A stretch of DNA of 64,000 bases from Marsupella aquatica (Eukaryota > Plantae > Marchantiophyta). Location: assembly GCA_973895155.1 (NCBI GenBank), contig OZ316892.1:6927251-6991250 (forward strand), read 5' to 3'. The notes under the pieces were generated by a model, which saw nothing but the letters and a program-made list of their open reading frames with translations, had not been told where the DNA came from and searched no databases. Within the stretch, counting starts at the first letter, position 1, and each line of letters starts with the position of its first letter. This document shows positions 16,308 through 64,000 of this stretch, in pieces. The position numbers were made by a program, and so were the translations under genes.

Positions 16308-20550
<4,243 letters not shown>

Positions 20551-21017
20551 TTTTTCACACTAGTTTATAAAAGTAATGCGAAACTGCTAATGTTTCCATA
20601 AAACTAGCGGTTCATTCTGTTGGCCTTGCTTGGCCATTAGAGCATCTCCAGCAGTAGGCCTGTAACCCCCAAAATCCCCACATAGCGGAAATTCGCGGAG
20701 AGCGTTCCCCGCACTGGCCCCTATCACTAAAAGATTAGTGGTCGGGACCCTCTTCATTGACCCTGGCTGCGGGATTGGCAGCTGGCAGACAGTGCTCCCA
20801 TCTTGGCCTTCCCCCATCGATGTTCTCAAACAATCCATATGTCAGGAGATATATCCTAGTTATGCATGGAACCTTAACCAGCCATGGTGCCAAGAGACTT
20901 TTCACGTCTTTGTTTGTGAATGTTTTTCACTCCAATTGTAGAGGTCAAATTTTATACTCTGATGTTGAATTGTCTCTAACTGGTTTTCCCATGCAATTCA
21001 AGGTGGTGTTCACTTGA

Positions 21018-22611: not shown

Positions 22612-22943
22612 TGTTGAACTAAGACGTCATTCGCAACGACCATACAACCATGATTCATTCCATGCACACGTAGTCGACACAATCTCTACGTGGTTCACCT
22701 TTTCTCCAAGGCTATGTCCACACGAACACTCAAGCTTTACTTCAAGAGTAGACGAACACACATGCTCTCTCTCTTCCTCCTGTTGCTCTATTACAATGAG
22801 TAAGCACCACACACCAGCGGCTTACACTAGCCCTGGTATATACAAGGTCACACACGACTAACCTAACCTCAGCTAAGATCCTAACTGTGGTTAGCCTAAG
22901 TGCCGTAACCTATGAGTCACAAGACTAAGAGCAATCCTTAACA
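22612..22943 (-). repeat. 3' LTR of copia element
   Basis: TGTTGAACTAAG...CCTTAACA; 4 transitions seen relative to the other LTR. Confidence 0.95.
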
Positions 22944-22957
22944 AACTCCCCCTTGAC
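22944..22957 (-). other. Polypurine tract of copia element
   Basis: Minus strand reads GTCAAGGGGGAGTT immediately before the 3' LTR. Confidence 0.85.
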
Positions 22958-23146
22958 TCTAGTCTTGGGGACTGCAATTTCTGCTATCCATATGAGATAC
23001 TCAGCGGGAATTCTAGACAATCACCTAAAACCATAGGTGTCCCCCTAAAAACTATTTAAGGTTAACTAAGGGTTAACTAGAATTAAGCCGTAGCCATAAC
23101 AGGATTGAGTAACCCATATACAGAAATTACATATTGTTAAGTTACT

Positions 23147-26100: not shown

Positions 26101-27301
26101 TCCAGCATTCCAAGAGAAATCAAGTTCTTTTTCATGTCAGGTATGTGTCTGACATTACTCACTGTTCGCACAGCTCCATCAAACATCCGAATTTTCATGG
26201 ATCCAATTCCAACAATTTAACAAGGATGATCATTCCCCATCAACACGGAACCGGTTGATATTGAGTAAGAAGTAAAAAACTCTTTCATACAACAAATATG
26301 ATAGGTACAGGCACAATCTAAAATCCATTCATCACCGTTGTTACTGGATAAAATGCAAAGGGCAACATCTGGACTTCACAAGATTTCATCATCAAGCAAG
26401 TCAATCATATCAACATCAGTGGCTGCGTTTGCTGATGGTTGATGAGACTGCTTGACTCGACAGTCTCATTTCATATGGCCAGGCTTGTTACATTTCCAGC
26501 ATATAATTGGTTTCCTTTCTAGAGATTTCTCTCTAGACCTGGATCTAGACTTAGACCGAGCCTTCTCCTTGCCTCTATTCTGTGAGGGGTATGTTTGTGA
26601 AAAGGACCTATTTCACCAATCATCTACTGTTGAGTTCTCCCGCGGTTCACATTCAATGCACTGCCAGATGAAGATGGTGTCTGGGCATGACCCAGTTTCT
26701 TCTGTGCATCATCTGACAGCAAAGAGCTTACCACCTCATCATATGAAATGGTTTTGAGATCTCTATACAAGAGAACCTGCTTCAAACCTTGATACGATGG
26801 GGGTAAGGAACTGAGAAGAAGCAATGCCTTATCTTCATCTTCCACTCCCTTGCCAAGATTTGATAAATCTACAGCTAGGTTGTCGAATTCATCCAAGTGA
26901 TCTCGAAGCTTGCCTCCTTCTTTTAGCCTCAAGCTCATCAAGAGAGACTTCTTGTACAACCGATCTGAGGCATCCTCTCGATAGTACTTCTCTCTAAGGG
27001 CCTTGAATAAGGATACGCAATCCTCGTAGTCGTCCAGCTTCTTAATGATATGCGGCTTCAGATACAGCATAACCGCATTCACAGCAATCACTTGCTCTTG
27101 CCTCCATTTCCTCAACGGGATCTCCTCTTCACTGCTAGACTCCTCGCGAGTCGATAGCAGATGATCTAGGCCCATAGCACGAAAAATTCCCTTAACCTGC
27201 TTCTCCCATAACAAATAATCTGTGCGCCCATCATATTTTTCCACCTCAAACTTGACACCGCCAAACTTGGATGCCATCGTTGTCCTTCCAACGTTCTCCA
27301 C
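23147..27301 (-). pseudogene. Copia gag-pol polyprotein interrupted by stops/frameshifts
   Basis: Gag 26624-27301. Zinc knuckle CWKCNKPGHMK*DC at ~26460-26500. Protease WILDCACTYH at ~26300-26330. GAG-pre-integrase/integrase (WHCRLRH, VHSDVWG, FIDDYSR). RT (KARLVAKG, QMDVVTAFL, LYVDDML) and RNase H in 23147-24718. Confidence 0.93.
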
Positions 27302-27971
27302 GTGCTATTGCTGTGCTGCTCCCTATATGCTTTTATCGCTTTTTTCTTCCTTCCTTCTCGTTGACTCAAATCCAAATCACGAAAAAATGTCGTTTTTCGC
27401 AACTTTCCAAAAAACTTGAAACTTGTCACCGCCACTTAGCCCACCAACCTAGCAAGCCAACGCTGAAATCCAAAATTGAAATCGAGTTCCAACGAAAAAC
27501 TTTTTCACGTTTCGGTCGGGGTGGGTAAAACTCAAAAATTCTCCCCCGTTTTCACCACCTCAGGGAATAAGAAAAATTCCAAGTACCACCCATCGTCGGA
27601 AATGAAAATCGAGTGGTGCACCGCATTGCTAGCTTCAGTGGCTACGTTCTCGCCAAAAAAGATCCGAAAAAAGTTACTGTTTGGACCTTGGAATCTTTGA
27701 CTAAAGGCCAAAAAACAGCTCTCTATTTTTTCGGTATATTCCTTGGACTGTGCAACAGGTCTCACAGGGGGCCGTTCCCCCTGTCCAAGCGATTAATTTG
27801 GTGGGTCACCGGGCCCGGGATGCCGCTTAACCAATGAGGAGCCTGGAAAGGATTAAAAAACTGGGCCTAAGGAGGTTTAAGCCCCTTAACACAAAAATAC
27901 TGTCTTAAAAAAGGCAGTGCACAAGGGGCCGGGGAGTAAAAAACCGAGTCGAAATGGGCAGGGATGGAGCT

Positions 27972-28112
27972 GCGACGGTCGGGACCTCCGGGACGTCCGG
28001 GACGTCCGCGTCGGCTGCGATGGTCGGGACGTCTGCGACGTCCGTGCCGGCCGCGACATCCGAGACGGCTGTGACGTTCGAGACGGCCGGGGCGTCCAGG
28101 ACGTTCGCGATG
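27972..28112. repeat. GC-rich 9/18-bp degenerate tandem array in the copia 5' leader
   Basis: Repeating GCGACGGTC/GGGACGTCC-type 9-mers. Confidence 0.8.
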
Positions 28113-28931
28113 GGAGTATTAGCGAGGAGGAGGAGGGGGTCGCCGACGGGGTATTGACAGGGGTGCAAGGGTCAGGAGGGTGTGTATACACACCACAAAA
28201 AAGGCCCTATTCTAAGGCAAAATATGCACAAAAAATAAATTTGTTGGGTTACTCACACTGCCGTTATCACTTTACACCAGATAAAGACTAGTTTTCGACG
28301 GGAAATGTTACCGAATTGCACCGGCACCGTTTGCAACTCTAGCAGAGTAAAAAATTCCCGTCACGACTCCTTCACTCCGCGTCAAGTGTCAATCTTGGAC
28401 TCAAAACGACCACTGCATCGCGATATCTCCATTGAGTCGTTGCACTTCCTGTTTCTTCCTCCGAGTCGAACGCAACGAGAAGTAACCCCGCTTCAGTCAA
28501 AAGAAGACTCCATAGCCAGTCAAAAACTCAGAACGGCTCTTTTGCTTGGTACATCGCACTCACTACACCCTCGATAGCAAACCAGCTACCGAAATGATCA
28601 GCTTTGCCCGATCTACGATTTGAGCTAAAGGTTGTGACGCCTCGCGCACCACAAAGCTCACACCGTCGAGAAAATGATCTCAGTTCCCCCCCAAAAGAAC
28701 CGTCGAAGAAAAAACCGTCGAACACGAATCACAAAAAATCCAGAACGACGGAAACGTGAATTCCTCCGCACCACGAACTCCGTTCAGAGATTTCTTTGCA
28801 CCGTCGGAAAGCCCTTGCCTCGATCTATCCGTTGAGCCCAACACCTCCAAGTTCCATGCGACAGAACTCCGTGAAATCCACCAACTCTAACCACTGGAAA
28901 AACTGTCACCAACACGTCACCTCCCAGGCTT

Positions 28932-28943
28932 GCTCTGATACCA
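28932..28943 (-). other. Primer-binding site (tRNA-iMet)
   Basis: Minus strand TGGTATCAGAGC, 2 nt after the 5' LTR. Confidence 0.93.
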
Positions 28944-28945
28944 AT

Positions 28946-29277
28946 TGTTGAACTAAGACGTCATTTGCAACGACCATACAACCATGATTCATTCCATGCA
29001 CACGTAGTCGACACAATCTCTACGTGGTTTACCTTTTCTCCAAGGCTACGTCCACACGAACACTCAAGCTTTACTTCAAGAGTAGACGAACACACATGCT
29101 CTCTCTCTTCCTCCTGTTGCTCTGTTACAATGAGTAAGCACCACACACCAGCGGCTTACACTAGCCCTGGTATATACAAGGTCACACACGACTAACCTAA
29201 CCTCAGCTAAGATCCTAACTGTGGTTAGCCTAAGTGCCGTAACCTATGAGTCACAAGACTAAGAGCAATCCTTAACA
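28946..29277 (-). repeat. 5' LTR of copia element
   Basis: Direct repeat of 22612-22943, adjacent to the PBS. Confidence 0.95.
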
Positions 29278-31179
29278 AAATGGTGGCACCTAATAAAAAA
29301 GTTACACACCTGTAATCTTTCTTCCCGACAAGAATTACATATAGGGTAATGACGGCTTGGTCCTGGGGTTATTGGTCTATAACCCTGTGACCAGAAAGTG
29401 AAAAAATGCTGACAAGCTACCGGAAGTTTTTCTGAGCTTTGTGAGAACAGGTTATAGAGAGTAACCCTAGCCCCAAACAGTCATTATTGTAGGTAATACC
29501 TGTCCAGAAAAAGATTCTCTGGCAAGATTTTTTGGGAACCCAATTATGGAAATAGTGGCACTTACTAGAAAAAGTTACACACCCGTAACCTTTCTTAATA
29601 ACGTGCTTCTGTATGAATAGGATAATGTCCTGGTTAGAGGGCATTGTGGGATATAATGCCCATAACTAGGACATTAATGTACATAAAAACTTGAGTGACT
29701 TTTCGATAACAAACAAGAAAAAGTAAATCCTTGAAATAGAAAATTCAGATTAAAAGGTCATCCAATAAGTGATTGCTATGAAATTGGCCAAAAATATACG
29801 TTCTTGAGTTATTAGATTCTATTCATAGATATTTTGTTCGTATCACCATATAAGATTTGGTTATCATCTTGAGATCTTGACTAAATTTAAATCTTTTTTT
29901 GTGTATGGTAAAACTATATTTACGGGCCCCACTAGAGGTCCCTTCCAAAATTCCTGGCACCACAGCGTGCCACGTCAAACCGCAACAAACAAGACTCGTC
30001 GATTTTGTGAATCAAACTTATAGTTTTCATTCATGTTTGTGTCAATTTGGGTGTAAATGTTGGGACGCCGTGCCGTAAAAAGAAAAGTAAAAACATTGGA
30101 AATGCAAAGAGCAAGACGGTTAAAACTGTCACTATGTAACCGTTTTAGTTACATTTCCAATTTTAAAACTTAAATTCAAATATTTATAAAAAGTATTTTC
30201 CATATAATAAATAATGACTAATAACTAACTTGATAACTTCCTTGTTAAACCGCAACTCCCGGTATGTAAGGACCTCTCGTATTGTACGGCCATTAATGTT
30301 GGGAAGAGCACATAGAAACCCAGGATCGGGGAGGAGGAATGGTTGGAATTTTGAAAGTTCATCAAATTTTATACTCAAAACTATTTACTCATTCTCAAAA
30401 CAAAAAATACCCAGTCGTAGATCTCATTGAGATCTTTCTTTTGCACCCTAGATCGCCTTCTAACATGGATGAATAAGATTTCTAGAGGCATTACAAAATG
30501 GACGACAAAGATCGTAAAATCAACAAAATCGACGACTAGGAAGGCTTGGATTTGTTTAATTTTTTATTTGAAAAATATTAACCCATTTGCAAAGCGGACA
30601 CAACCCATCCATAGATCTATTTGAGATCTTTCTTTTGAGCCATAGATTGGCCATTATGATGGATGGACAAGATTTCCGGATATAAGAAATGGAGACGGCT
30701 CAGATCTATTCTTCCCCCTGATTTTATTAGCCAAAGGATACACGAACTAATTAATTTTTACTTTTATGGAATGGTGTTTTGTATAATCTCCTCCTCAAAA
30801 AAACAAGCACATTATGGAGAATTAATGCACTCAAATAAGTCATGAAAGGCTTTACGAATCCAAGGGAGTTCCGGACCATTTGTAAATTCTGAGGAGCGCA
30901 ATTTGGCTTTGGATGGGCACCTCTAACGAGCGCGTTTTTCAAGACATCGCTGTGTGCTGAAATCAGTGTTCCCCAGTTGAACGAGGGCCCTTTCTTTCAG
31001 CTTTCAGGGAACGTCCTGAAACTCATCGGTAGGAAAGCTTGCCCCCGAATCACCCGCGATCGGAGAATCGTTTCTGTAGCTGGATTGCTTCCTGCCGAAA
31101 GGCGGACGGACGGGCGGACAACACATTTGCTGGGGAGCCCTCTCTTCGCTCGGGAATGTGATACGGGACGGACTTCGGT

Positions 31180-44099: not shown

Positions 44100-45809
44100 T
44101 GCTCTAGTCTTTCTCTCGGTTTTTCACAAGGATCCTCCCACCACAATCCAAATCAGCACTCTCTTTGGATTATTTTTCTTCTAGTGTGGGGATTTCAATA
44201 ATCGAGAATCCGCTCGATCAGTAAGATGGCTTTCTTTGCTTAGCTTTGCATTCTTTGCAGAAGGTGTCACAAGCGGCAAAACATTCAAACCGTAGGGCCC
44301 TGTGCTTTAAGTTCCTTTATAAAGTAGGTACTGTAGTCATTTCACAACTCATTTCACAGATCGTGAAATAGTTTATACTAAAGAGCATTTCATATTTTTG
44401 AGAATTTTCAGTTTACATGTAGTACATACAATTATGATAGTGAAGGTTCAATCCCCCCTCCTCACAGGAGTGTGGAGGGTATATGTGTTTGGGTGGGATG
44501 GGTTTTGTGGGTAGTAGATGGGAGTTCTGGTAGTCCAATTTGCGGCCCTGATTTAATACTTGCTCCTTCCTAGTGCAGATCCCTGTTGGGTCCAGTGAGG
44601 GTTCACCCTGAAATGGGTCCCTTAGAATGAATGTATGTACTATTGGGGTGGGGAGAGACTACTAAGTGTTCTTCCTCATCTCCATGCAAGACACACAAAA
44701 AATGATTATGATAGTGTATAATTAATGCCCTTTGGTGATTTGAAGAATGCACTGTGTGGATTTGGGGAGGGAGTTATGAAACTTCTACTCTACTTTTAAT
44801 GAAATAATAAAAGTAGAAAATCTCTCAGGTCTTAAGTATATAATGCCCTGTTGAGAGGGGGCATTCTCAGGGCTTCATGGTCCACAATGCCTGTTACTGG
44901 GATGTTACTTTGTAGCAAAGAGTGTTTCATATTTTTGGAAAAGCTTAACAATGTCATCTCATTAAGTCAGCACAGGGAGCTGTCTACTTTTCTCAGAAAA
45001 GACATCTTAAATCAAGATCTTAATTATGTCAGTGGTTCATACCTATCTTGACTGTGGGCCAGGAAGTCACCTAGTGTGCCAGCCTGATCCCTGATGCCTG
45101 GTACCGGTGCGGATGCTCTTACACTTGAGTTCATCATTCCTAATGCTTTCACTATTTTCATAAACACATATTATTGTTAAGTCATGGCGTTATGTACAGG
45201 TCTAAGCACTATAACTAAGTAAGTTTAACCCTGACTACTTCTGAGGTCAGTCATTATTACTTATTCTTGGTTTTTCCTTAACCTTTTCACCGTAGGTTTT
45301 TCCATAACCTTTTAATTGCTCACTTATTGGAGTTTAATATGTAGGAATTTAAATCATTCTGAAATCCCTACTAACCACACTAAAATCTTAATTAGCCTAA
45401 CCATATGAAGTGTTACTCAAACTCGGAACTCCTATGCTATACTAGTTCAATACTTAAAAAAAAACTTTAGCCTAGTAGATAGCTTCAATCCAAGGTCTCA
45501 TAGTGTGTAGAAAAACTTATGGAAAGTGTACCTCCCAAAGTAAGCAAGGAGTCGCCACCTGACCTCCTTCCCAGATCCTATTTAAATCTGGGAAGGAGCT
45601 CCATACATCCTATGGCTTGAGCAACATAGAAGGACTTGTCCGAACATCTTGTGAGATATGTACCTCACGCCTCCATGCATCCTATATCTTAAGCAACAGG
45701 ATGGTACATAATGGCCAAGCAAGCCCAACAGATGAGCTGTGAGGAATCTTGAAAACACTAGCAGTTTGAACAGTGTTCTTATAAACTCCACTGTCTATAT
45801 TGACCCTCC

Positions 45810-51048
<5,239 letters not shown>

Positions 51049-52689
51049 GCTGAACTGAATTTCAGTTCAGTTTTGTGGTGGGCCCCGAAAATGCATCCAG
51101 TAGTTCAGTTTTGCTACAATGGATCCGTAGGCACAAGATTCCACAAAACATATGTATACTGCTTTTTGAGTCCAATATTATTAAAAGATGTTATCACACT
51201 ATATAGTCAATTCCCGCCTCTGGTTTTTCTGTGTTTTTCCGTCCGTCAGAAATACTCACTTGAATGGACAACGCTCATAAAACAAAGTTTTTCATACGCA
51301 AGCCCTCTGCAAATAAAAAAATGCACTGACGTGACACGGAGAAAAAACAATGTTACTTCATCCTTGGTGGCAAGAAGAAAAACACTATTTCAAAGTCACC
51401 AGAAAATTTGTACTCCACAGATATTGTCAATTTTCATCTCAAATGAAATAACAGGATTTAATGTGAATGCTTACATGGGAAAAAAAAATTCACTCTTGAG
51501 TATTTATATTTGTCGTAATAGTGTTTCTGCCCTGTCCATTTGGTGTGTGTGTTTTTTGTTGCGGCTGCTTGTTTTTTGTTACGCATTGAATATGCAGTGC
51601 GTGTAATTTGTTTTTTTCCAATATGTTGGTGTGTGCTTTTTACACGTCAGTGTTGCTTGTTTTTTTTCAATATGTCACTTTTTTGTCGCCAATAATGTTT
51701 GTTGCGTGTTTTTTAACATGCTTCTTGGTGCATGTTTTTTTACGCATTCTGTGATGACCCCTGTCCCTTGCGGGGTTTCATTAGGGGGTTACCCTGTCTC
51801 CAACGGGATTTCATTACTGGATTAGACCTACATGTCAGAAATCTTAGGGTCTCCCTTTCAATCCTCATCTTTCGTGAGAAACAACACTCTTCTTTTGCAC
51901 TATATCTCTTCTTTTTCATCAAGGGAACAATGTCCATAGTGGCTTCTCCTTTTTAGCATCAACGACAACAATTTGACAACATCTTTTTATTTTGCTTCTA
52001 TCAAGCATATAAGGACATGTGTGAAAACCTCTACAATACAACAGGGCAGCCACTTAATCTCCACAAAATTCAAGAATTGAAAGTATACCTACATAAGATG
52101 GGCCAAACATTGGACATATTGAGTTGCACTCCATTACTCTATTTTGTTTATATATTACAGCATCAGATTCTATTAAAAACTTGAAATGCTCTATTTTTAC
52201 ATGCTTATGGGATAAATTCATAACATCTGCAAACAAAATTTAACCAACTATAAGATTGCATATAAACAAACACAAAATTTGGACATGAGATGCAATGCAC
52301 CAAATCTTACTTATAAATCTCCCACTACAAGCTACAGTTGGGACCTAGGCTTTTAGAGTGAAGTCTCTAGACAGTAACTCCATGGCTCATCATGTGAATG
52401 AGAAAACTGGTGTCTATGATGTATGTCATGTCAAATGATAATCATGACTGTTTTTTGTTATAATTTTTATTTATATTAAAAACTGATCTCTATGGCCCTA
52501 CCCTATTATATGTGCATATATGTGCATAAGTGGATTGTGGGATAAACAAACTGAAAGTGGGTTGTGCATAGAAAACAGTATTATGGTATGTTATGTATGA
52601 TTATTAAAATGATGATATGCATGATAAATTTTTTATCATTTCATTAACCTCTATATTTTGGTGACATGTTTATTGTCCGCCCCGCTATT

Positions 52690-52719
52690 CACGTTCAAAG
52701 AACGGGTAGTCGGGGCTAG
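52690..52719 (+). mobile_element. Probable Helitron 3' terminus
   Basis: Hairpin CGTTC-AAA-GAACG(GG), then about 10 nt, then CTAG (52716-52719) followed by T. AT-rich sequence lies upstream; 5' end not identified. Confidence 0.55.
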
Positions 52720-52769
52720 TAATGGAAAAATCTCATTCCAACACATATAGATGTTGTAGTTGTAGTTGT

Positions 52770-53713
52770 TTTACTTTTATCACTTCTCAATGTGATGGTC
52801 CTCAGCTGGTTGTGTAGTACTGCAGGTCCAAGTTTCCTATTTCTTTCAATTTGCTTTCTCAAAGTTTTGAACCAATCAAGGTCACAATAATGAAGGTATC
52901 CAAACATTTTGAAGTAGCTGTATGCTTTCAAAGTAGAATTTGACACTGGAGTTCACTTATACACCATTTGTTTCTTGCCTGTAAGTTACAAACATCTAAT
53001 GCTCTGGTGCTTCTATGGTTTGAGATTGTTGACACTCGTCTAGAATCACTTTGTACCATTATATTTGCTTTAGGCAAGGAGAGAATTTTTCCTTTGGTTT
53101 CTTGAGTTTTTGCGTCACAATAATTTTGGGAGTTAACTTGCTTTTTTCTCTGTGTTAGTGTGTCCACACTAGAATGCACGACAATACTGGTAATTAGGAC
53201 ATTTTATTGCTCCAAAACCTTTGGATCCATTGACATTTGTTGATGTGCCTTTTGAGTAGTTTTAGTGATCATCTCATGTTGTCATTTGAGTCATAACACC
53301 TCTTGGACAAACAATATTGGTCTTGTTTGTAAGTGGTCAATTGGTGACAAAGAGAAAAATCAGTTGAACTATTTTCCCCATTTTTTTCCCAATAAATACG
53401 TTTCCATGCACAAATGTAGAGGAGACGAAAATTGTGAATTACATAGCACACAACACATGACTTACATAGTGTACAACACATCCTGAAGGCTAGCTTAATT
53501 GAATACAAAGGTCACTAAAAATCAACAACTAAAATGAGCATGCAGTATTACCTCGTCATCTGCCAAAATGCCTCCAAAAACTTCCAAGTTGCTAGATTTC
53601 CTTGATAGCATGTTAAATATATTTTCCCTTTGGTATTGGTAGCCTTTAAAACTTTGTATAAGCCCATCTGGTGGACTCTCTTCTCCAATAAAATGTTTAT
53701 AATCAATGTATTC
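52770..53713 (-). pseudogene. Degenerate SNF2 ATPase N-lobe, RAD5/16-like CHR27/CHR28 (FRG)-type
   Basis: Exon 53552-53713 reads EESPPDGLIQ...YQRENIFNML...GGILADDE|GT. Then MGKIVQLI (motif I), IVCPRGV (Ia), WYKVILDEC (II), ARNKWCIS..TP (III) and YSYFKM...LRTITLR, with stops and frameshifts. Confidence 0.75.
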
Positions 53714-54336
53714 CTACAATGGTCATATCATAACAGTTAGCCTTCATTTGTGGGGTATAGCGACCAAGACAGCAAACAGGCAAACAGCAAATACTTTTCC
53801 TGTTTGCCTTATGCTGTTACCAGGAAAAAACATCTTGTACCAGGGGAAAGAACACACAATCAGGAGTTTAGAATTGTTTAAGTTGGAGTTAGTCCATTGC
53901 AGTGAGGGAGGATACCTTGTCATGAATCGCTGAACCACATAATAATTGAACCTCATATCCCAACACAAACAAGGGGGAGCAGACATAAAAATGTCAAGGA
54001 ATGTGCACAAAAATGGTAGGTCCCACCACAATCGGCAACAAAATATATAAAAATAATACAAAATGAATGCAGCCCAAAACTTTATGGTATTATATGGTCC
54101 AAAATAAAAGCGAACAACGTCTTGACTAGCACCTGGCGCTATCTTATCGGTATTTAAGGAAACAAATAGTTGGCACAACACGATGATATTTAACGGTGTA
54201 GCCTAAATGACAAAATTATCAGCGCCTGGCGCTAACAAAACATGACGCGACATAAATAACACTTTTCCGTTGACATACGACAAAATCAATATAACCATTT
54301 GGACCGATAATAAAACCTACATCATCATGATTCATG

Positions 54337-57300
54337 CTATAAACTATGAGCATTTTGCCTCTCTAATATGAGCCGAACCTCTCCAACAGTGAGAATTGGT
54401 TGGCTGGTCAATGTAGATTCCTCAACGTCTAGTTTGAAAACGGTAAGGAAAATCCAATACAAATGTTTGCAAGGCATATATGGATTTGCAAGGCATATAT
54501 GGATGTTTCCGAGAATGTCACCGGTAGAAATCCTCACACGAGCAAGTGGGGAAAAAGCAAATTTGAACAAAGTAACAATTTGGCGTCCGCATATTTTCAT
54601 GCGTTTGCACCTTAAACTGCTTTCCCCATGCATTCCCAATCGCAACATCCCACTCTCCCTAAATGGACATCGTCTCTTTTTTTGCAGACGCAATTATGTT
54701 CATGTGACCCTGGGTAAGATTTGACTGAGGAACCGTATTCCTCCCATTCCGGCTTCGGAGACGAACATTGGGTTCGAGAAGATTCACATGTTCTAGAAAA
54801 ATATTGACATTGATTCGAAGATCAAAATCTAACGGGGGTGTAGTTGTATGTTCATTTCCGTGCACTAGGGAGATTCCGTTGTCAAGAAGATATTGCAGCT
54901 CATCTTCCGAAACATTTGTCCCTTTCAAAACGGGAAGAACATCCGAGAAAGGGGGCAGGTTCAATACACCTCGACGAGGGCGGCTTTAGTAACATGTATT
55001 GTTTGGGAAAAACCAAATCATTTCGGTTATGGGTTCCCCCCTGAAAATGTCCTTTGACAACAACGCCGATAACACCATGTGGTGAGGGAAATCCAACTTT
55101 TTTCATGCGATTGCGACACTCGTCTCTTTTGGAATTATGGGAAAATGATCCGTTGCACTGAGGACCAGCGCCAAATTTTGAAGTTCGACGTAATTGCCAT
55201 GCAGTTGGAGCAACCTTGGTCTCACGGACAGGACACTCTTGTAACGGTTGTTGAAGCACGGAGGGAGCAGTCTGGGGAAGCCTCGTTGAACGCGTTCGGT
55301 CTCGAGCAGGAGGGGTATTGAAATTGACATCTTCTCCACCGCCCGAAATGTCACTTCCAGACAGATTAACAACAGGATTAACTTGAGGCGTGGGGCCAGG
55401 GATAGCATCAAACGTCGTGCGATTAAGATTCTTCCTTTTCATCGATCTAGTATTGGGCGAGGTGACAAGGATTTTATCATGCCTATGGGAGTCTTGTGGC
55501 GAGATATTCCCAGATGCATGTCCTTTCCTCTTCAAAGATTTGGTGACAACGTCTCCATTGAGAGGTGCACGTCTCTCCAAGTCAAACTCGGCAGCGTTGG
55601 ACAGTAGCATATTCATTGCATCTTCATACAACTTGGGGGAGCCTGCCTGGTCCGCTGATCGGAAAGCAAGTTCCCAAATTGTGGGACCTTTTCCTCTATG
55701 CAACCCTTTCCGATACGCAGTGTAAGCAGCAACCTGAGAAATAGCTCAATTTTGGTCCATTTCACATGCCTCAAAGAGTCCAACCTTTTTCTTCATTACC
55801 CATGCTTTCATACCTGCGTGCACGGACTCTGATCCTGTACAATTAGGAATCTTAGCCCCTTCTTCGACACTCATGCGCAATTACATAGAATAAATTGTTT
55901 GTTACGCAACAAGAAAACACTAGCGTCGGGCGCTAGTGAAGTGGAGTCTGTACCTAGAAGTAAAAACTGGCACTGTCCATTAAGGGACAACTTATTGCGT
56001 CGTATTGTGTCATATGACAGTTTGAATAAATGATAGCGCCAGGCGCTAGTATTAAAGGATGCTATGGTATTGTAATATTTGAATATGGATACAAACATTT
56101 TGTAATGAGAATATAGCACAGTAATACCTAAAGAGCGGAAAGCAAACTAAGTAAACTAACTTACCAAACGAATAAAATTTCCCCATTGCCTCCACCTGAC
56201 GACCCACCATGAAATCCAACTTTGGAGCATCCGAAGCTTCCCCGGGACACAGTTACCCAACTGCCACCACAAATCAATCTCCCTTGAAATTCTGTAAGCC
56301 TCTACAAATGTGGGGGCATTTCGCATCTTATCCCAAAGCCTCCGATGCTCTCCTTGACTCTCTTCAATCACTCCTTTAATTGAATGGCGATGGAAGGCTT
56401 GGTAGAAATGGAATGCGTCAGTTCGCTCACGCTCAGGGTTTGGATGCCCTCCAAAAAAGACATTTTGGACTGCCAGCCAACCAGCTTGAGCATTGTCCGC
56501 CATGAATCCATGAATAATCGGATTTTCTAATCCATTCTCCTTGGACACCTCAATCATTAGTCTCCAAGCCTTCTCGAACGACTCTGTATCCTCTGCTTTT
56601 AGTTCGCAGGTAAATAAGGTACACAGAGCGCGATAGTTGTGATCGTAAATATGCGCACTAAAAGTAACCCAGTCTTTTGTGAGTCGTTTCATCACATCAA
56701 AACTTACCCAAGAACCTTCAAGACTTCCACCAGGTTGCATTTGTCTCAAAAGATCGACGCCTGATCCATGACCGATCAAAGTCATCTTGAATATGTGAGG
56801 ACGGTCTTTTTGAGACCCTTGACCTGGTAGGAGGTACCTGTGGAGGAAAGGCATGTTGATATTTCTTTGATACCGAACAAGAAAATCTAGTTCACCTTGA
56901 CCTTTCTGGTCCTGTCTAACACTACGAAAGAGGGACGCAAACTTCTGGGGTGTGGAAACTACCATGAGCGACTCAAATATCTCAGTTTCTTCAATATCTT
57001 GAATATCTTCCACACTTTCACACAAGGACTTTACAAAGGACCCTGTCGCCACATTTTTTACACCAGCAGGGGTAAAAATTGGATTTCCTTCCAATTTCTT
57101 TTTGATAACCTCCTCAACAATCTTCTCTGCGCTCCAAGAAAACACCTTTCTTGAAGGATGGTTGTGGATCCCCATATGAATTGCCAAGCGGGACATGTGA
57201 GTACAAGTTTCTGAGTCAACTAGAACCTGGGGGTACATGTAAAATAACCTTGCTGGACAGGATTGGACACAAAACGGAACTTGATCACAAAATTGGCAAA

Positions 57301-58237
57301 CAACTCCACCTTCGTCAATGAAGGAGCCAACACGATGTTGCCCGCCAAGTTTGGGGGTTCCACCCCAGGCCTTCTGGTTCCTCCTTTTCTTCCGTCGAAA
57401 ATAGTCGCAAGTATTATTCCTACACTCAATGGAACCAGTGCACGTTACTTTACCAAATTCCCAATATTTCTTGGGATGAACATTAGCTGATGTAGGAAAT
57501 ATTCTGGTCCAGATGTAGCAATCCTTCGACCGGTCCATGTCGCGTAGACGTGACCCCTTTGAAAGAGCTCCCGTAGGAGGCAACTCGAATACAATATTTC
57601 CATTGTATTTCTTTGGCAAACAGCCGACTTGTTCATGGCAAAAGTCCCCAGCCGCGATGAACCTTGAGATTTCACTGGAACCAGTTGACTTGAGAATAGT
57701 ATCCATTGCACTTCTCCGATACACAATGGAATTTTTGGTAAAAACTGCTCTAACCTCTTGTTTAACAGGGGTAACCTCCTGTTTAACAATTGTGTGAGGG
57801 GGTTTAGCACTAGACTCAGGCAAACCAGAAGGTCCATCATCGTCGCTATCTAAAAGAAAGACAACATCAACAAAGGGTTTGGATGAAGATGGGAGATCGG
57901 ATGCGACTGGTTTTCGAATGACAATAGAATACCGAATTCCTGCATTCAGGTGCCAAAAACGAATCCCGTCATCAACATCAAAAGAAGTAGTGAAATTAGA
58001 GGCTTCATCTCCGTTTCCCTCCTCCAAAATGTCCTCAATGTCATTCAAATCCAAACCAAAGCGCCCACAAAGATAATTCTCACTAACTTGCTTGTATACG
58101 TCATTGGTCGACAATGGAATGGATACAAGGTCACCGGTAGACGGACGCGTCAGAACGATTAACCTCGACATTGTAAGATCATCCAACCCAAAAACACTCA
58201 GTTCACAATAATGAATGATGTCTTCGAATGCACACAA
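54337..58237 (-). pseudogene. MULE-type DDE transposase with GCM/WRKY-like zinc domain and C-terminal SWIM finger, disrupted
   Basis: 693-aa ORF contains TCTGSIECRNNTC...CQFC...CPAR...HMGIHNHP (GCM/WRKY-like), SFDVMK (D1), FMADNAQA (D2) and DAFHFYQA (CxxH-like). After the intron (donor 56164) comes SESVHAG (putative E, ~55828). C-terminus PTCSCEDF...PCKHLYW (SWIM). Stops at 55746, 54986, 54659, 54518 and a 19-bp duplication at 54466-54503. Confidence 0.8.
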
Positions 58238-58311
58238 TGGTATTCATAGTGAATAATCCGTTTGTCAGAGCCGTTAGAATACGATAGAATCACTACCGGT
58301 CGAAAGCACAT

Positions 58312-59130
58312 CTGACACAATAAATATTTTTTATCGTTATGTCAACAACATTTACACTAATGAGCCTAAGATGTCCGTTTCCGAAGAGCATAATCATGTT
58401 TATTAAATCATCTTAATTGAGTAGCGTCGGGCGCTACTCAAACATCCTCACTCCAACATGGACCCAAAATGGTGCAATATATGTTTAGCGCCAGGCGCTA
58501 CTCAAACCCACACCATAAATTGTGGTATTAAACTGGAATATTTTATCCGGGGTTTCAGAATAAACCCTAATGTTTGTAGCTATTTTCCAAATATTATCTA
58601 AAATTTTACCAAAATGTGCCCATTTAATATTAGCGCCGGGCACTAATTTGAAACAGTAATCATGACATTCAATTAAGGAAAAATATTCAAAAATTGTATT
58701 CATTTTGTTTTTTATTTTATACTTCAGGGTCAATGTTGGCCTAACTTAGGGAAAATTTAGGGTTTAAATATTGATCGTTTTGGGTAGCGCCAAGCGCTAC
58801 CATTGACCAATATCAGATTTGACCTAGGAATATAGATTAAAATCACCAAACTCTTCTTTAACGGTCATATTCAACGGTAATGTTAGGTCGCGTAACGTTG
58901 AAGATATGCCAACGGTATTCTAACAACTAATCCAGAATTGACAAGTGGCGCTCAGGAGAATGTCGTAAATAGATATCAATGTAGCGAGGGGATAGTTTAG
59001 AGATGATACTCTCCCCACCTCCCTTGTCCGCTATATTTAGGTTCCGTTTTGGAGGTTCTTCGTGCAAGAATTCTCTAGAAGAAGTACAGTACGAATGAGG
59101 TACTCATCACGATCGTGAAGCACTTTGTGT
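58312..59130. promoter_or_regulatory. Putative bidirectional promoter between transposase and accessory gene
   Basis: AT-rich spacer between head-to-head genes, carrying 4 palindrome copies. Confidence 0.5.
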
Positions 59131-62100
59131 ATGCAAAACATGGACCCTCTCCCCACCACCTCGCATGGGTATAGTGCTAACGAGCAGAGAGAGCAGATCC
59201 ATTCCCAGACATCCGAGTGCTCGTTTTCTGGATCTGTTTACAGTCGTCGTGTGACACGGTCTACAGCATCCGAAGATCCTGAAACAGTTGCGGTAGTCAC
59301 ATTTTCGAAGAGCAGGAGAGCAAAGATGGACGATCTCGACACATACGTTGTGGAATTTTGAGGAAAACTGTCACTGACGATGTTCGACGTTATCTCCAAG
59401 CACGTTATGGTGTTTGGCAAGGATTTTCGAGGGCACGACAAAGACCCCCCAAGGATTCCAATGTGCCGCTTGGTTCACATGGAAGTTGTCTGCACCTTAT
59501 AGAAGGGAAGTCCTTCAATTGAAAAGTTGAAGGACTCTTTTCGTAGCACAGGATACAACTCAAAAATTGGAATGTTATTCTATGTCCAGCCGGCAGATTC
59601 GAATGGGAATGTCCAGACGTGTACTCCAGAAATTAGAGCGACATGGGACCCGGTGTGGGTGGTCGAGAACGAGAAGTTTGAAGCTGAATGTGCGGCCAAT
59701 CCAGACTTCATGGTGTTACAAGATAAGATGTTTTACGTTTTTGACGGTAACCATCGACTTTACGCATGGTCGATCGTTACGAAAGAAAATCCAGAAGATA
59801 GCAAGTATCACCCGCGTGTGCAATGTACTATCTTCAAGGGTGAAAAGGGATCTTTGATTGAAATTGAGGCGGCTATACATACTGTGAACCAGTAAGTCTA
59901 TCTTTGAATTTCACCTATCCTTATCTTTTATAGTGTAGTTTTCACTAGCGCCTGGCGCTATTGACTGACAAATTCTTCTGTAGACTTGGACAGGCCGTGG
60001 TGGACATCAAGTATTCCTGGATACTTGATGAAGACCGAATTAAGAGGATTTTGTCCAACGATCTAGAATACTACAAATCAATCATCGATGGGGCAAACTT
60101 CAAGAAGTTTGGGCAGGTGATGCAAAAGACTCGAAAAGGATCATGGTATTCCAAGAAAATGCCTCAAGAAGCACTTATGTATATCTTATGCGAGAATAAG
60201 ATTAAATCCTATTCTTGACAATTCAAGAAGGACATGGAGTCGGCCACCGCTCAGGGAAATCCTTGGTCTCGGGAAGAGACATCCAAACAACATGCGGTCA
60301 TGATGAAAGAAGCAACGAAGGGATTGGGCGATCAAGGTCTCAAAGATCACTCCCTTGTTGAGTCCTGAGTTTGAAGACTTCATGACAACCTGTGCTGAGA
60401 TGTATCCGATGACAGAGGTGAACAAACGCGAGAAGAAACCGGATGCGGTTGTTTGTACCATGGATCGTGCCAGGTTATTTACAGCAGTCTCCGCCCTTGA
60501 CCCCAAATTGAGGAGCACTTTGTTAGTAGCGCATTGCACGCCAGAGCTCAGGAAGCAGTTCTTTCATCCGCAAAGCATTAGCGATGACCCTGTGAAGCAG
60601 TGGTGCCACACTTGGCAAACTTGGAATAGCGTGGAAGGAATTGCCATTGGTATGCTGCAGACTATCCTCCAGCAAATCAGTGAAATAATTTCTTCCAATC
60701 GATTGGAGGAATGGAATTGTGAGTCTTATGATTCACTCGTTGAAATAGTGTGCAATGATTTCAAAAAATTTGGGGATGCAATGAAAGGTAAGTTTTTCAA
60801 TACGACGTGGATGTCCAAGTACCCGGACAAGGAAGACTACACACTCAAGAATCAAAAGCGAGCTAAACGATATGTCTATCGTTTCTTCATGCACATGGAG
60901 ATTGTGAAGCCTGACTATTTTTGGGCTTACACAGCTGCTTTCCAGAATTGGGTCATCTGCGCAGATTGAGACATTTTGGCCGAACTGTATCCGATGTATC
61001 CCGCTGAGGGTATACTTCCACCAAGGAAATTGTCCCAGTGGGAGAGAATTCACTGCCCTTGGTACCTTGACACCGACAGATGGGATTCTCCTTTTGACGA
61101 CACTGAGAAGGATGCTTTCCATAAATTGTCTAAATCCCAAGTTCCGAGACAATTTATCTCAGACATGAAGCAAGGAATTGAGGGGGACGTCAACTCGTCG
61201 ACGACTGAGTTGCAAAAAAAATGCGAAACCACAGTGGTTCATGTTGATCGAAGCCAAAAACCAAGAGCCAAAGCCAAGGCGGATGCCCCTGTGGCAAGTG
61301 CTAGTGCCAAGTCTGGGAAAAAACGTAAGCTACACCTCCTTCTTCCGACTTCCTTCTTTGTTAGCGCCTGGCGCTATCATGTGTCGTAAGTTTAATGTGT
61401 CATATTTCTCAAAATTGATGTGGGTGTTTGGTCAGCGCCTGGCGCTAACACTTTTTCTGTGCTTGACACCGTTTTTTGGTAGGTGGTCAAAAATCTGATG
61501 CCGCCACGGATGACACAAAAGTTGATGCAACACCAGAAGTCTCTGAGGCCAACACTGGTGCCAATCCAGACCCCATCACCCCCGTTGAGAAGGGGAAGGT
61601 TATAGTTCTTGTGGATGCTACAAGCACAAAGAAGAAGAAGAAGAAGAAAAGGACCATCGATGCCTGGGAATCGTCGCGAGATAATGCTTCTGGGGCCGGT
61701 ATCCAACGGGATGTGGGGACTTTCAAGACTAAACTCGGAAGACATTGTATGGTCGAATCAAGCTTGGCAGAATTCATTGATAGTGCATTTAGTAAGGAAG
61801 AGAAGCCAGATTGGGTCTCAGACGCTGAGAAGTGGGGTAAGGATTTGATCAAATCGGGGTGTAGAGATAAAGGAATCATTTGAGGTGGGAAGGAACGATC
61901 ATTTGGGGTGAATGCGGGTTTCATCTATCTCCCAACTGGTTTGAAACCCACAATTGTTGACCGTCGGGTCCCAAAATGGAATGTGACAGATCACACAGCA
62001 GCCGAATCATTTTTTCAGGCGATGGATCCTTTCCTTTCCGATGACGGCATGCTCGCTATCTTATACTCGGATGACCACGATCAGATTTCCCAGGTTATTT

Positions 62101-62857
62101 CTGCATGTCAGCAATCCAAGAAGTTTATGTGCATCAATACGCACAATGTTTTCATGTCTGTCCCAATGTACAGATCCAAGACAGATGTCCAGGTAAATGT
62201 TCTCTCTGAGTAGAGCTATACTAGCGCCCGGCGCTACTCTTTCTTTCTTAGTAGGTCTTCTCTCATGAATAAGAGATTTTTAAAATCCAATTGGTTTGTC
62301 AACTTTTGCAGGTCTTCACTCTTAGACTAGATATATTTTGTCGAGTTTCTTTTAAAGGAAAGGTCCCAAAGGATCCAAGATTCAAGCCGTTATCTAGCGC
62401 TGAAGATCCTTCAATCTCAAACCTTATTGGGCTACAATCTTTGAAGGAAGATCATTGTCCTGAACTCTATTTTACTGGGAATTCCCGACTACCGGTTGGT
62501 TTTATGCAAACTATCCTTGAACTCTTTATGATACCTAAGGATATTGTAATTGATTGGACCGTCGGCTCAGGTAGTACGTTCATTGCTGGGGATTACTCAG
62601 GCCGTTTTGTCATCGGGTTAGAAAATCGTCGGGAGTTTGTTGAGACCGCTTCGAGGATTTTTTTGGATCTCATTTCTCCCAAACCTTTGGAGACACAACC
62701 TCCCCCTCCTCAAATAACCGGACAAAAAAAGAAAGATAGACTTAGATCTGTCCTCAACTTTGATTCGGATGAAGATGATGGGACGTCAGAAGATGATGGG
62801 ACGTCAGAAGATGATGTTCTTGAGGATGTCAATGACGGCGGGAAAGAGGAAACCTGA
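59131..62857 (+). pseudogene. ParB/Srx-like domain + beta-class amino-DNA-methyltransferase-like protein, 4 exons, disrupted
   Basis: Introns 59892-59983, 61325-61482 and 62193-62311 (GT-AG, frame-preserving). N-terminal RIPMCRL...EKLKDSF..GY...FYVFDGNHRLYAW. C-terminal LPVGFMQTILELFMIPKDIVIDWTVGSGSTFIAGDYSGRFVIGLENRREFV. Poly-Lys tract and acidic tail. Stops at 59359, 59500, 60216, 60967, 61881 and one frameshift near 60320. Confidence 0.72.
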
Positions 62858-64000
62858 CATGATGGGTCAACGGAGGATAGCGAAGAGTCTTCCGAGTAAT
62901 TTTTGTCTCTCGTAAGCTCCTTTATCCTTTCAATTGTTGGCTAACCATCAATTCCACTGGTTCTATCTGTTAAGTACTTACTTCCTCTTTCTCTTCCGCT
63001 TCTCTTTTGAGCAGGTCAGAATGGAACCAAAAAAACGGTTTTAACTCCGGAGGAAAGTGGCTTGAAATGTAATCATCACTCCCAAGAAGCCGTTTGTGTT
63101 GCCATCATACGCTGAGAACGTCGCAAGGAAGGTAGAGAAATTTAGAACGCTCTGCTGGGAAACAAAAGGACTTAGGCTTCTTAGGGGAGTAGACAGGAAG
63201 TTCATGAGGAACCCCTATGTAGATGATGTTTCTAGAAGCAAGTATATTGATGATGAGGCAGAGTCGACCGACAGATCTCATAGCTCCAAGAATGAGAGCT
63301 CAGAATATGACACTGAAGGGTAGCAATTTTCTCCTCTATCAGGTCAAACTTCCTCCCAACTGTACGAGTATGCCCTTGGTTTTTGTTAGCATCGGGCGCT
63401 ATTGAATTTATTAAATATGAATTGAGTTTGATGGAGGTTGCCCCTTCCATTCAATGGTTAATGTGGTCTTTAGTAACGTCCTTTGTGTGGGTTCCTTTCC
63501 TTGTTTAACTAGCACCCGACGCTCCCCAAAAAACACGTTGGAAGTTTCCGTTTGATATTTGTCATTTCCGCCATAGTGTCATTTGGCTTTCAGTCGGCGA
63601 CTAGTACCGTCAAGAGGACCAATAACGGGAAATCCAAGCCCCTTATAAACATACTATTGTTTCTTTCAAAGTCCATTGCTCTCGTTCTTCTCCTTCTTGA
63701 TTCCATGGAAGGCCAGTGTATCGACGGCCCACAAGAGCATATGTCAACTTCCAATTAGATGGTTTCCGCCAAGATCCAGATCGTCAGGACGCTGGGATTG
63801 ATGATGACTGTCACTCTTCGAGCTAGGACATTGTACGAGGAAGCACCCACCGGGAGTATTAGCGCCTGGCGCTAGTTACAATTGCACTGGAAACTTTAGT
63901 GTTCCTATGTAGCAATATTTGTACATCAAGGACAATATGTTTCACTTAAATAAAAAAACTCGGGTTTCTTTTCTTTCAATTTCCCGTTAGAAGTTATGAC

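Follow-up and report, generated by a model that had tools for sequence, protein, structure and literature searches.

The palindrome TAGCGCCNGGCGCTA occurs in 15 dispersed copies on a decayed, multi-copy and probably Mutator-like transposon of ~10 kb at one end of the analyzed window, a 64-kb stretch of DNA from the liverwort Marsupella aquatica. On balance we consider these palindromes to be family-specific candidate landing sites at which a dimer of the accessory protein encoded by the element itself would bind; for this protein a ParB fold is predicted. A scan of the whole window with the core TAGCGCC-N-GGCGCTA, tolerating up to three mismatches, yielded exactly 15 matches, all between positions 54127 and 63874, and none in positions 1–54126, a flank which includes several host genes. 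In 100 dinucleotide shuffles the mean number of matches was 0.49 and the maximum 3. Six copies were perfect, seven contained one mismatch, one contained two and one three. Scored with a matrix, the 15 copies reached 24–33 bits and the next-best site 5.9 bits; the matrix was built from the same copies, and only this gap between the scores is informative. An earlier note on this DNA had counted about 15 copies, distributed over the element in groups of 2, 2, 4, 1+2+1 and 3, and had seen none in the first 54 kb or in the reconstructed exons. All of this was recovered by the scan.

The element extends approximately from position 53800 to 64000. A depth step, contig ends and an end search placed the left end at ~53800–53980 and the right end probably at 63890–64000. 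Mutator-like elements are characterized by target-site duplications of 8–11 bp and by long terminal inverted repeats or non-TIR ends (PMC6446971). Among the candidate ends examined here no convincing terminal inverted repeat or target-site duplication was found, and the ends are known only approximately. Thousands of contigs with a similarity of 80–99% were found along the element in two runs, and contigs from the flank were of low depth. These contigs came from four organisms and five studies; their summed depth does not equal a copy number. The element belongs to a multi-copy, dispersed family, as expected of a Mutator-like transposon, and the particular copy in the window is dead.

No more than two genes were detected in the element, a transposase gene on the minus strand and a divergent accessory gene on the plus strand. 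Exon 1 of the transposase gene (56165..58171) is an open frame encoding a Cys/His-rich N-terminal region, the sequences FDVM and MADNA, which we take to be the first two catalytic Asp motifs, and a presumed DAFH motif. The intron (55881..56164) possesses a GT donor at 56164, and its inferred acceptor reads TAA in this copy. Exon 2 (54337..55880) is broken by stops and frameshifts and contains GSESVH, the putative catalytic Glu, and what appears to be a SWIM-like C-x-C...C-x-H stretch. The putative motifs D, D, D-x-x-H, E and SWIM-like stand in the order expected of a MULE transposase. Searches of the transposase against Pfam, NCBIfam and PDB sequences gave no match. The best match in the ESM Atlas, to be taken as a lead, was a PF10551 MULE cluster (cosine 0.87), and the ten best family-bearing matches agreed with this assignment.

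In the product of the accessory gene a DGNHR-type domain is followed by a helical region and by a methyltransferase-like domain. Exon 1 (59095..59891, with an approximate start and with stops at 59359 and 59500) encodes the ParB/Srx-type domain with DGNHR at 59743–59757. Exon 2 (59984..61324) encodes the helical region and is interrupted by stops at 60216 and 60967 and by a frameshift near 60320. Exon 3 (61483..62192, stop at 61881) contributes a linker and the first half of a beta-class methyltransferase-like domain, of which the motif IV position (61926–61940) reads YLPTG. Exon 4 (62312..62895, stop at 62855, end inferred) encodes the C-terminal N6_N4_Mtase half, including the SAM-binding motif I-like sequence DWTVGSG at 62552–62572. 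A probable exon 5 (63015..63323) contains two internal stops and showed a weak tblastn match to the Riccia sorocarpa protein P0028 (E 0.14). In an alignment the R. sorocarpa homologue (P0160/P0028) covers all four accessory exons and leaves out the palindrome-bearing stretches between them. In addition, homologous exon-sized proteins end at the donor of accessory intron 1 and, likewise, at that of the transposase intron. Thus, the intron calls are supported independently. Relatives of the accessory gene were found in Riccia and Adiantum; the family comprised 344 matches, in which the motifs P[IV]PLCR..VR, GY, DGNHR and a terminal N are strongly conserved.

With respect to these genes, two palindromes lie downstream of the transposase (54127..54141 and 54220..54234, one mismatch each) and two in its intron (55921..55935, one mismatch; 56034..56048, perfect). 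The divergent spacer contains four (58422..58436, one mismatch, with arms that pair five bases further; 58486..58500, perfect; 58631..58645 and 58785..58799, one mismatch each). One copy is located in accessory intron 1 (59892–59983; copy at 59946..59960, perfect), two in intron 2 (61325–61482; copies at 61362..61376, perfect, and 61433..61447, one mismatch) and one in intron 3 (62193–62311; copy at 62222..62236, perfect). The remaining three are found in the right end region (63387..63401, two mismatches; 63510..63524, three mismatches; 63860..63874, perfect). From any point of the element the nearest copy lies within ~1.2 kb. None of the 15 copies overlaps coding sequence, and ~29% of the start positions are non-coding (P ~1e-8). 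The occurrence of a copy in all four of these introns was only borderline when compared with random non-coding placement (P 0.065). The probable fifth intron (~62896–63014), located before the probable exon 5, contains no palindrome even at four mismatches. Consequently, the proposal that the palindrome is placed in every intron and spacer applies to four of the five introns.

This placement has to be weighed against two other candidate binders. The palindrome might recruit a factor of the host that acts on transcription or chromatin, perhaps in germ cells, with the accessory gene as unrelated cargo. The promoter-like spacer and the introns would suit an enhancer, and a symmetric site would suit a dimeric host factor. 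Nevertheless, this explanation is improbable in view of the complete lack of copies in the 54-kb flank with its host genes and of the information content of the palindrome site of ~30 bits, which is large for the site of a plant transcription factor. To our knowledge, no plant factor with such a palindromic site has been described. The main rival, which we regard as unlikely, is the transposase itself. It might bind the palindromes as a dimer, with its Cys/His-rich N-terminal region as the putative DNA-binding part, for self-activation or for compaction of the element during transposition. The AtMu1 transposase is described to bind its own element sequence-specifically and to bring about hypomethylation without an accessory protein (10.64898/2026.08.24.746577). 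Moreover, copies are present near both ends (54127/54220 and 63387–63860), and subterminal sites could substitute for the long terminal inverted repeats that were not found. However, the peaks of the AtMu1 transposase lie at the terminal repeats in the same report (10.64898/2026.08.24.746577), whereas 10 of the 15 copies here are internal, within introns or the spacer, and those near the ends stand singly at intervals instead of forming arrays at the tips.

The conserved site turned out to be wider than the 15-bp palindrome described before, which forms its core. The extended consensus of ~27 bp, WWWNRN-TAGCGCC-N-GGCGCTA-NYNWWW, is symmetric with one skipped position. Two bases outside the core (−2) a purine was found in 29 of 30 half-sites (p 3e-8), and A/T occupied position −4 in 28 and position −5 in 26 of them. 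Among chance viral matches to the palindrome the purine at −2 was present in only 45 of 104 half-sites; these matches were isolated, with one site at each of 52 loci (one whole record was checked). Beyond this R/W signature the flanks of the copies are unrelated (identity 0.32 versus 0.30 for random pairs). The central base is free (six T, four G, three A and two C). Thus, the CCWGG found in the core beside GCGC is not what is conserved.

A role of the palindromes as DNA or RNA hairpins (cruciforms, splicing aids) is hardly probable, and so is their origin as footprints of an independent tiny repeat, the latter an alternative raised in the earlier note. Most copies fold as short single-stranded DNA stems with up to −10.9 kcal/mol, and the arms extend in 6 of the 15 copies. 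The value of −10.9 kcal/mol belongs to the copy at 58422 with its five additional paired bases, the extended-arm copy previously noticed near 58418. Yet, compared with the make-up of the columns, no excess pairing was found at any of eight flank positions (lowest P 0.076). It is the sequence that is conserved and not merely the pairing, compensatory changes were not observed, and the palindrome gave no Rfam match. The unrelated flanks, the absence of copies elsewhere in the window and the isolation of the chance viral matches argue against a tiny repeat. This analysis therefore largely refutes both explanations. Since the site is wider, carries the R/W signature and shows unrelated flanks and no excess pairing, the palindrome looks, as judged from its sequence, like a protein-recognition site rather than a hairpin or tiny repeat.

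Nine of the 12 core deviations are C>T or G>A changes, in agreement with the predominance noted earlier, and all nine affect cytosines in CG, CCG or CTG. The palindromes of the present copy thus appear to be decaying by deamination of methylated cytosine, and the host seems to have methylated these sites. The CpG observed/expected ratio in 1-kb bins showed a median of 0.76 in the element and 0.57 in the flank (p 4e-4), a difference which bears only indirectly on a loss of 5mC over the element. A nearby copia element exhibited a ratio of 0.43. The contrast is modest; several flank bins are equally high, and constraint on coding or promoter sequence can account for the difference.

In order to predict the fold of the accessory protein a Riccia relative with 34% identity to the protein of the window was used. 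The model was mostly confident over residues 133–713, with dips at 305–307 and 645–659. In a VIA search of 48,161 chains the best six matches all belonged to the ParB/Srx superfamily (Z 5.0–7.4): KorB (Z 7.4, rmsd 7.6, 196 residues aligned), PadC (Z 7.0, rmsd 3.2, 98 residues aligned), Pnob8 ParB, Srx, SerK and Atu1540. A Z of 7.4 lies within the range that the tool calls common. The matches of this superfamily span model residues ~140–305; the alignment with KorB continues to residue 517, at the rmsd of 7.6. ParB, Noc and Srx also recurred in a Foldseek search with the same model, in which no match reached E ≤0.001. Together with the conserved R, DGNHR and N of boxes I and II, these matches of modest Z to the model of the relative point to a ParB-type nucleotide-binding fold, which is accordingly predicted for the front end of the accessory protein. 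Box II reads DGNHR in place of GERR, the canonical ParB sequence. Pfam ParB models matched none of 114 accessory-family members, and a ParB-type HTH was not clearly identified (VIA match to the SopB DNA-binding domain at Z 3.8, rank 49). A DNA-binding domain is absent from some proteins with the ParB fold, and some are ATP enzymes (PMC13229309; 10.1101/2025.10.10.680097).

The C-terminal domain of the accessory protein matched PF01555 (E 6.6e-08) over its motif I half and also phage methyltransferase PHROGs. Alignment to the Riccia proteins placed motif IV before motif I, the order of beta-class enzymes. A catalytic (D/N/S)PP(Y/F/W) motif IV was not found: the YLPTG of the window corresponds to DLPTG, DMPSG or DMPTG in four Riccia proteins and to DFPIG and DVPFG in two Adiantum proteins. 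The aromatic residue of SPPY/DPPY, which stacks the target base (PMC10406627), is missing in six of these seven proteins and kept in one fern relative (DVPFG). Because the catalytic motif is non-canonical, the domain is more likely a DNA/SAM-binding or base-flipping module than a 4mC or 6mA writer. Methylation of the palindromes by this domain, with a foreign 4mC or 6mA mark shielding or flagging the element, is accordingly quite improbable. The domain matches and the motif I-like stretch, CCWGG and GCGC in the core and the aromatic residue of the fern relative would fit, and bacterial-type enzymes are reported to write 4mC in Marchantia sperm (10.1101/2021.02.12.428880) and in rotifers (PMC8885841). 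These points are opposed by the loss of the aromatic residue in six of seven proteins and by the free central base. Furthermore, the targets of methyltransferases are usually far shorter than 27 bp.

The earlier interpretation, a selected site bound by a dimeric protein of the element, is in agreement with the confinement, the exon exclusion, the unrelated flanks, the symmetric consensus and the predicted ParB fold. Among its three proposed binders a parS-like pairing with the ParB protein is best supported, the methyltransferase target is weakened by the non-canonical motif and the transposase persists as the main rival. Known ParB-family sites, such as OB of KorB, are palindromic (PMC11790492). 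By analogy to ParB and KorB on parS and OB, the accessory protein would load at the palindromes and might spread along the element. In this way the element could be labelled as self and remain open to transcription despite cytosine methylation by the host, an effect that VANC has on VANDAL elements. Anti-silencing as the purpose of this pairing is conceivable, though we would not call it probable. VANC21 of Arabidopsis binds a short family-specific motif located in the introns, between the genes and at the termini of VANDAL21, like the present element a Mutator-like transposon with an accessory gene (PMC5735166). The non-coding confinement typical of that system is found here as well (none of 15 copies in exons and none in the 54-kb flank). 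However, the VANC motif comprises 9 bp, is not palindromic and is repeated in tandem in the same orientation, in contrast to the 15–27-bp palindrome without tandem repetition, and demethylation was shown for VANC (PMC5735166), whereas it is only proposed for the accessory protein. The accessory protein gave no match to a VANC-like Pfam domain. Membership in the VANC family was rejected; the protein is ParB/methyltransferase-like, the copies are single, and the system is VANC-like in its working at most. As a counterpoint to anti-silencing by accessory proteins, hypomethylation can also result from a Mutator transposase that binds its element sequence-specifically and unaided (10.64898/2026.08.24.746577).

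The idea of a ParB-like accessory gene is already in print for algal transposons, and the same role has been proposed for such genes with inverted repeats. In Plavaka elements of red algae PAG3/PAG2 possess a ParB-like N-terminal domain, inverted-repeat units were proposed as binding sites, and PAG-homologous accessory genes were reported on Chondrus Mutator elements (10.1101/2025.02.11.637652). PAG3 is fused to a 2OG-oxygenase with the methylase as a separate gene, and its repeats form tandem arrays adjoining PAG3 (10.1101/2025.02.11.637652), unlike the single copies with unrelated flanks across introns, spacer and ends found here. Sola1-1_Ec32 from the brown alga Ectocarpus, a member of the Sola1 superfamily rather than a Mutator-like element of a land plant, encodes a ParB-like protein with an N4C/N6A DNA-methyltransferase, and its main text mentions no palindrome (PMC12477816). 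The likeness is one of domain description, and the methyltransferase motif of the Marsupella element is non-canonical. The land-plant Mutator setting and the dispersed intronic sites look new. The element offers a candidate site whose 27 bp are sharply defined, a complete protein model from the Riccia relative and named liverwort and fern relatives, which makes the idea directly testable in land plants.

The helical region and the ParB part of the accessory protein also resemble fungal DUF3723 proteins by language-model features. Residues 135–715 of the Riccia relative scored 0.96–0.97 against DUF3723-bearing fungal clusters of the ESM Atlas with 199 of 256 features shared, a lead rather than an alignment, as the Atlas calibration does not extend to parts of proteins. 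In these clusters 51%, 22% and 17% of the members carry DUF3723; the PF12520 HMM matched none of the 114 accessory-family members at E 0.05. DUF3723 (PF12520) genes of fungal Starship elements are, as here, carried as transposon cargo (PMC9156397). In the most far-reaching reading, a land-plant Mutator transposon would run a bacterial-style ParB/parS machine. The accessory protein would load as an NTP-dependent clamp at the intron, spacer and end palindromes, slide over the 10-kb element and block or reverse host silencing, and it would belong to one pan-eukaryotic transposon-clamp family with algal PAG3 and Starship DUF3723. We regard this reading as doubtful. Anti-silencing by such an accessory protein, if true, would represent a second, prokaryote-derived route to sequence-specific anti-silencing and might serve as a tool with which kilobase domains are marked starting from a short tag. 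It would also hint at what the fungal DUF3723 genes do.

With bacterial ParB/parS and KorB/OB the element shares the predicted ParB-type nucleotide-binding fold and dispersed palindromes on a mobile element, and fusions of ParB with N6_N4 methylases are described as common in phages. Unlike the bacterial systems, the gene is eukaryotic and intron-containing and encodes a large helical region in place of a clear HTH. No ParA partner was present among the two genes found in the element, and therefore a ParABS segregation system was not assigned. The KorB OB oligonucleotide TTTTAGCGGCTAAAA exhibits TAGC/GCTA arms around an odd centre, as do the palindromes of the element (PMC11790492; 10.1101/2025.10.10.680097); this likeness of four bases at another spacing may be due to chance.

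The palindrome set was analyzed by searching the window with the consensus TAGCGCCNGGCGCTA. At up to 3 mismatches this search revealed 15 matches, all of them located within 54127-63874; the first 54 kb contained no match. Shuffled versions of the window (100 shuffles) contained a mean of 0.49 matches and a maximum of 3. When 4 mismatches were allowed, eight further sites appeared, seven in the flank and one in a transposase exon. In a matrix scan the true copies scored at least 24 bits and the next-best site 5.9 bits, with a matrix built from the same copies. The palindrome set is a real and sharply defined feature, and the positions and counts of the earlier note were correct. The note had also placed the palindromes outside the exons. 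This was borne out, since all 15 copies lie outside coding sequence, which makes up approximately 70% of the element (P about 1e-8). The farthest base of the element lies 1,194 bp from a copy. The further claim that every intron carries a palindrome held for four introns, but not for a probable fifth intron at 62896-63014, which contains no copy and is followed by a weakly conserved exon (E 0.14). Compared with random placement in non-coding DNA, the occupation of four out of four introns is of borderline significance (P 0.065).

A wider consensus was derived by pooling the 30 half-sites of the 15 copies. Counted outward from the core, position -2 was a purine in 29 of 30 half-sites (p 3e-8), and A or T was found in 28 at position -4 and in 26 at position -5. 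Positions -1 and -3 as well as the central base were unconstrained. Thus, the 15-bp core described before is real, but the consensus extends beyond it, to about 27 bp. Outside this signature the flanks of the copies are unrelated to each other (identity 0.32 versus 0.30). A symmetric consensus of approximately 30 bits with skipped positions in unrelated flanks has the look of a candidate site for a dimeric protein. Recruitment of a host factor by the palindrome is a less likely reading of the same sites. The flanks of the 15 copies showed no pairing above expectation. Therefore, a function as a hairpin, likewise a less likely explanation, was rejected. Neither a small mobile repeat nor expansion in tandem would give a symmetric consensus with skipped positions in unrelated flanks. 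CCWGG or GCGC can be dismissed as the functional unit, because any base may occupy the centre and neither word shows enrichment in non-coding sequence beyond the motif copies.

Exact matches to the palindrome were found at 52 loci in viral contigs, with one site apiece and without the flank signature: position -2 was a purine in 45 of 104 half-sites, compared with 29 of 30 in the element. As single sites lacking this signature, these loci were attributed to chance. An Rfam search gave no match, and collections of metagenomes, viruses and prokaryote genomes yielded no related DNA loci.

The transposase gene extends on the minus strand from 58171 to about 54337 and consists of two exons. Two Logan homologues share 45% and 63% identity with its product, and three homologous proteins stop at the intron donor of the transposase exon. 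Searches against Pfam, NCBIfam and PDB sequences gave no match. In the ESM Atlas the protein was nearest to PF10551 MULE clusters (0.87), which serves as a lead only. The motifs FDVM, MADNA, DAFH and GSESVH and a SWIM-like end follow each other in an order which we take to be the Mutator pattern. A short tandem duplication in the SWIM-like end (54460-54510) disrupts the reading frame of this copy. The main rival to a role of the accessory protein at the palindromes is binding by the transposase itself, because the AtMu1 transposase needs no other protein to bind and hypomethylate its own element; it acts, however, at the terminal repeats (10.64898/2026.08.24.746577).

The accessory gene is encoded on the plus strand from about 59095 to 62895, probably to 63323, with four sure exons. 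Riccia proteins of 1207 aa and 1191 aa align across these exons and bypass the motif-bearing introns, and three exon-sized homologous proteins terminate at the donor of intron 1. In this copy the gene contains six premature stops (exons 1-4) and a frameshift. Named relatives of the protein, for example KAL3677308.1, KAL3686416.1 and MCO5582296.1, belong to Riccia sorocarpa, a liverwort, and to Adiantum ferns, so that the host is probably a land plant without seeds. A profile search with exon 1 yielded 344 proteins at E <=0.001. The exon 1 alignment comprised 114 sequences, which were chosen from 150 listed sequences, cluster members and three pieces of the window; P[IV]PLCR..VR, GY, DGNHR and a terminal Asn are conserved in this family.

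The accessory protein combines a predicted ParB/Srx-type part, a helical part and a methyltransferase-like part in this order. The fold was predicted for the Riccia relative P0033, mostly with confidence over residues 133-713; a single-sequence prediction of the ParB exon of the window reached a pLDDT of 35.6. Comparison of the P0033 model with 48,161 chains gave six best matches which all belong to the ParB/sulfiredoxin superfamily. These were KorB (Z 7.4, rmsd 7.6, 196 aligned), PadC (Z 7.0, rmsd 3.2, 98 aligned) and, on ranks 3-6, Pnob8 ParB, Srx, SerK and Atu1540. ParB, Noc and Srx also recurred in Foldseek searches. The predicted ParB/Srx fold is consistent among these comparisons but modest in score, since no Foldseek match reached E 0.001 and the Pfam ParB models did not match the family. 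PDB sequence searches with the ParB/helical alignment gave no match, and a helix-turn-helix was not clearly seen in the P0033 model. When the ParB and helical part (P0033 residues 135-715) was compared with fungal DUF3723 clusters in the ESM Atlas, the language-model similarity was 0.96-0.97. This similarity suggests that the DUF3723 genes of Starships and the plant family are related, although the PF12520 HMM did not match the accessory family. In Starships, DUF3723 genes are cargo whose function is unknown (PMC9156397); PMC12289983 mentions neither DUF3723 nor ParB.

Exon 4 of the accessory gene matched N6_N4_Mtase (E 6.6e-08) and also DpnA-type structures. A search for longer proteins containing the methyltransferase exon found nothing. 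In SPPY/DPPY enzymes an aromatic residue of motif IV stacks the target base (PMC10406627). At the corresponding position the window has YLPTG, four Riccia proteins have DLPTG, DMPSG or DMPTG, and two Adiantum proteins have DFPIG or DVPFG. This aromatic residue is missing in six of the seven sequences. Methylation of the palindrome by the accessory protein is considered a less likely explanation.

Most likely, a dimer of the accessory protein recognizes the palindrome. The palindrome may serve as a loading site, comparable to parS for ParB or OB for KorB, from which the protein might then spread along the element; such a system would serve self-recognition of the element and anti-silencing. KorB is reported to slide from palindromic operators and to act at a distance (PMC11790492). 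VANC21 binds a short motif that occurs in introns, between genes and in the terminal regions of its Mutator-like element, and removes methylation (PMC5735166); the palindromes are placed in the same way. For algae, a system of this kind has already been proposed in two cases. Plavaka PAG3 combines a ParB-like domain with adjoining tandem inverted repeats (10.1101/2025.02.11.637652), and in Ectocarpus Sola1-1_Ec32 a protein with ParB-like and N4C/N6A methyltransferase parts is encoded opposite the transposase (PMC12477816). Phages frequently carry fusions of ParB and N6_N4 methylase (10.1101/2025.10.10.680097). Some of their ParB-like proteins have no DNA-binding domain and activate DNA-modifying enzymes (PMC13229309). 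Further related literature is available (PMC4738411, PMC8885841, 10.1101/2021.02.12.428880, 10.64898/2026.05.21.726589, PMC6446971). In the literature covered, mainly the main texts of open papers, we found no Mutator element of a land plant that combines palindromes with a ParB-methyltransferase gene. Compared with the proposed transposon systems, the land plant host, the Mutator-like type, the dispersed intronic palindromes, the non-canonical methylase motif and the possible DUF3723 link would be new.

The deviations of the palindromes had been described as mostly C>T/G>A, and indeed 9 of 12 were of this type. Four of these nine are located in CG, four in CCG and one in CTG context. The change at position 6 occurred in four of the six copies whose centre makes CCG and in none of the nine others (Fisher p 0.011). 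This pattern fits deamination of methyl-cytosine in a dead copy, although it may instead represent a fixed variant. The median CpG o/e was 0.76 in the element (10 bins), 0.57 in the flank (53 bins; p 4e-4) and 0.43 in the copia element. The higher value might reflect past protection from methylation, but it supports this weakly because some flank bins are as high as the element.

Public sequencing runs from 4 organisms in 5 studies contain the stretch wholly or partly; no RNA run was listed among them, which says nothing about expression. From two of the runs, 3,111 and 5,511 contigs aligned to 52001-64000, most of them less than 99% alike. The summed contig depth, which does not equal copy number, was approximately 1,500-28,000 over the element and 67-101 for flank contigs, with a step near 53,800-53,980 and a drop in the last bin. 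Clearly, the element forms a family with many diverged members. At 60967, where this copy has a stop, other copies carry a G, and at the frameshift near 60320 they have one base fewer.

Neither terminal inverted repeats nor target-site duplications could be fixed among the candidate ends of the element. Between 53846-53884 and 63944-63977 there is a weak inverted match with gaps (score 23); it fits no target-site duplication and might represent degenerate terminal repeats. A high-depth contig of one run (X2) joins 56055, just after copy 4, to 63379, shortly ahead of copy 13, through 33 letters of other sequence. The short side of this join is supported by 22 letters only; it may be a deletion derivative in which the motif clusters of both ends are retained, or a false join caused by the motif. 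A contig of the same run lacks 95 bases from the interval between copy 1 and copy 2 (54141-54237), as if one motif-to-motif unit had been lost in another copy.

Apart from the element, a short repeat of very high depth at 52400-52720, with many unrelated loose ends at 52720, is possibly a small non-autonomous element. The flank contains plant genes, namely a gene with Mind-bomb SH3 repeats, presumably KEG-like, an EF-hand gene and a gene for the small subunit of serine palmitoyltransferase, as well as a reverse transcriptase of the copia type. An inverted duplication (16309-20639 and 45709-51046; 79-89% identity, longest piece 3.4 kb) includes the EF-hand gene, which we take to be centrin-like, in both arms. 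The copia-type retroelement (22612-29279) has a low CpG o/e and carries its reverse-transcriptase frames between direct repeats of 334 bp (22612-22945 and 28946-29279), which are 98.8% alike.
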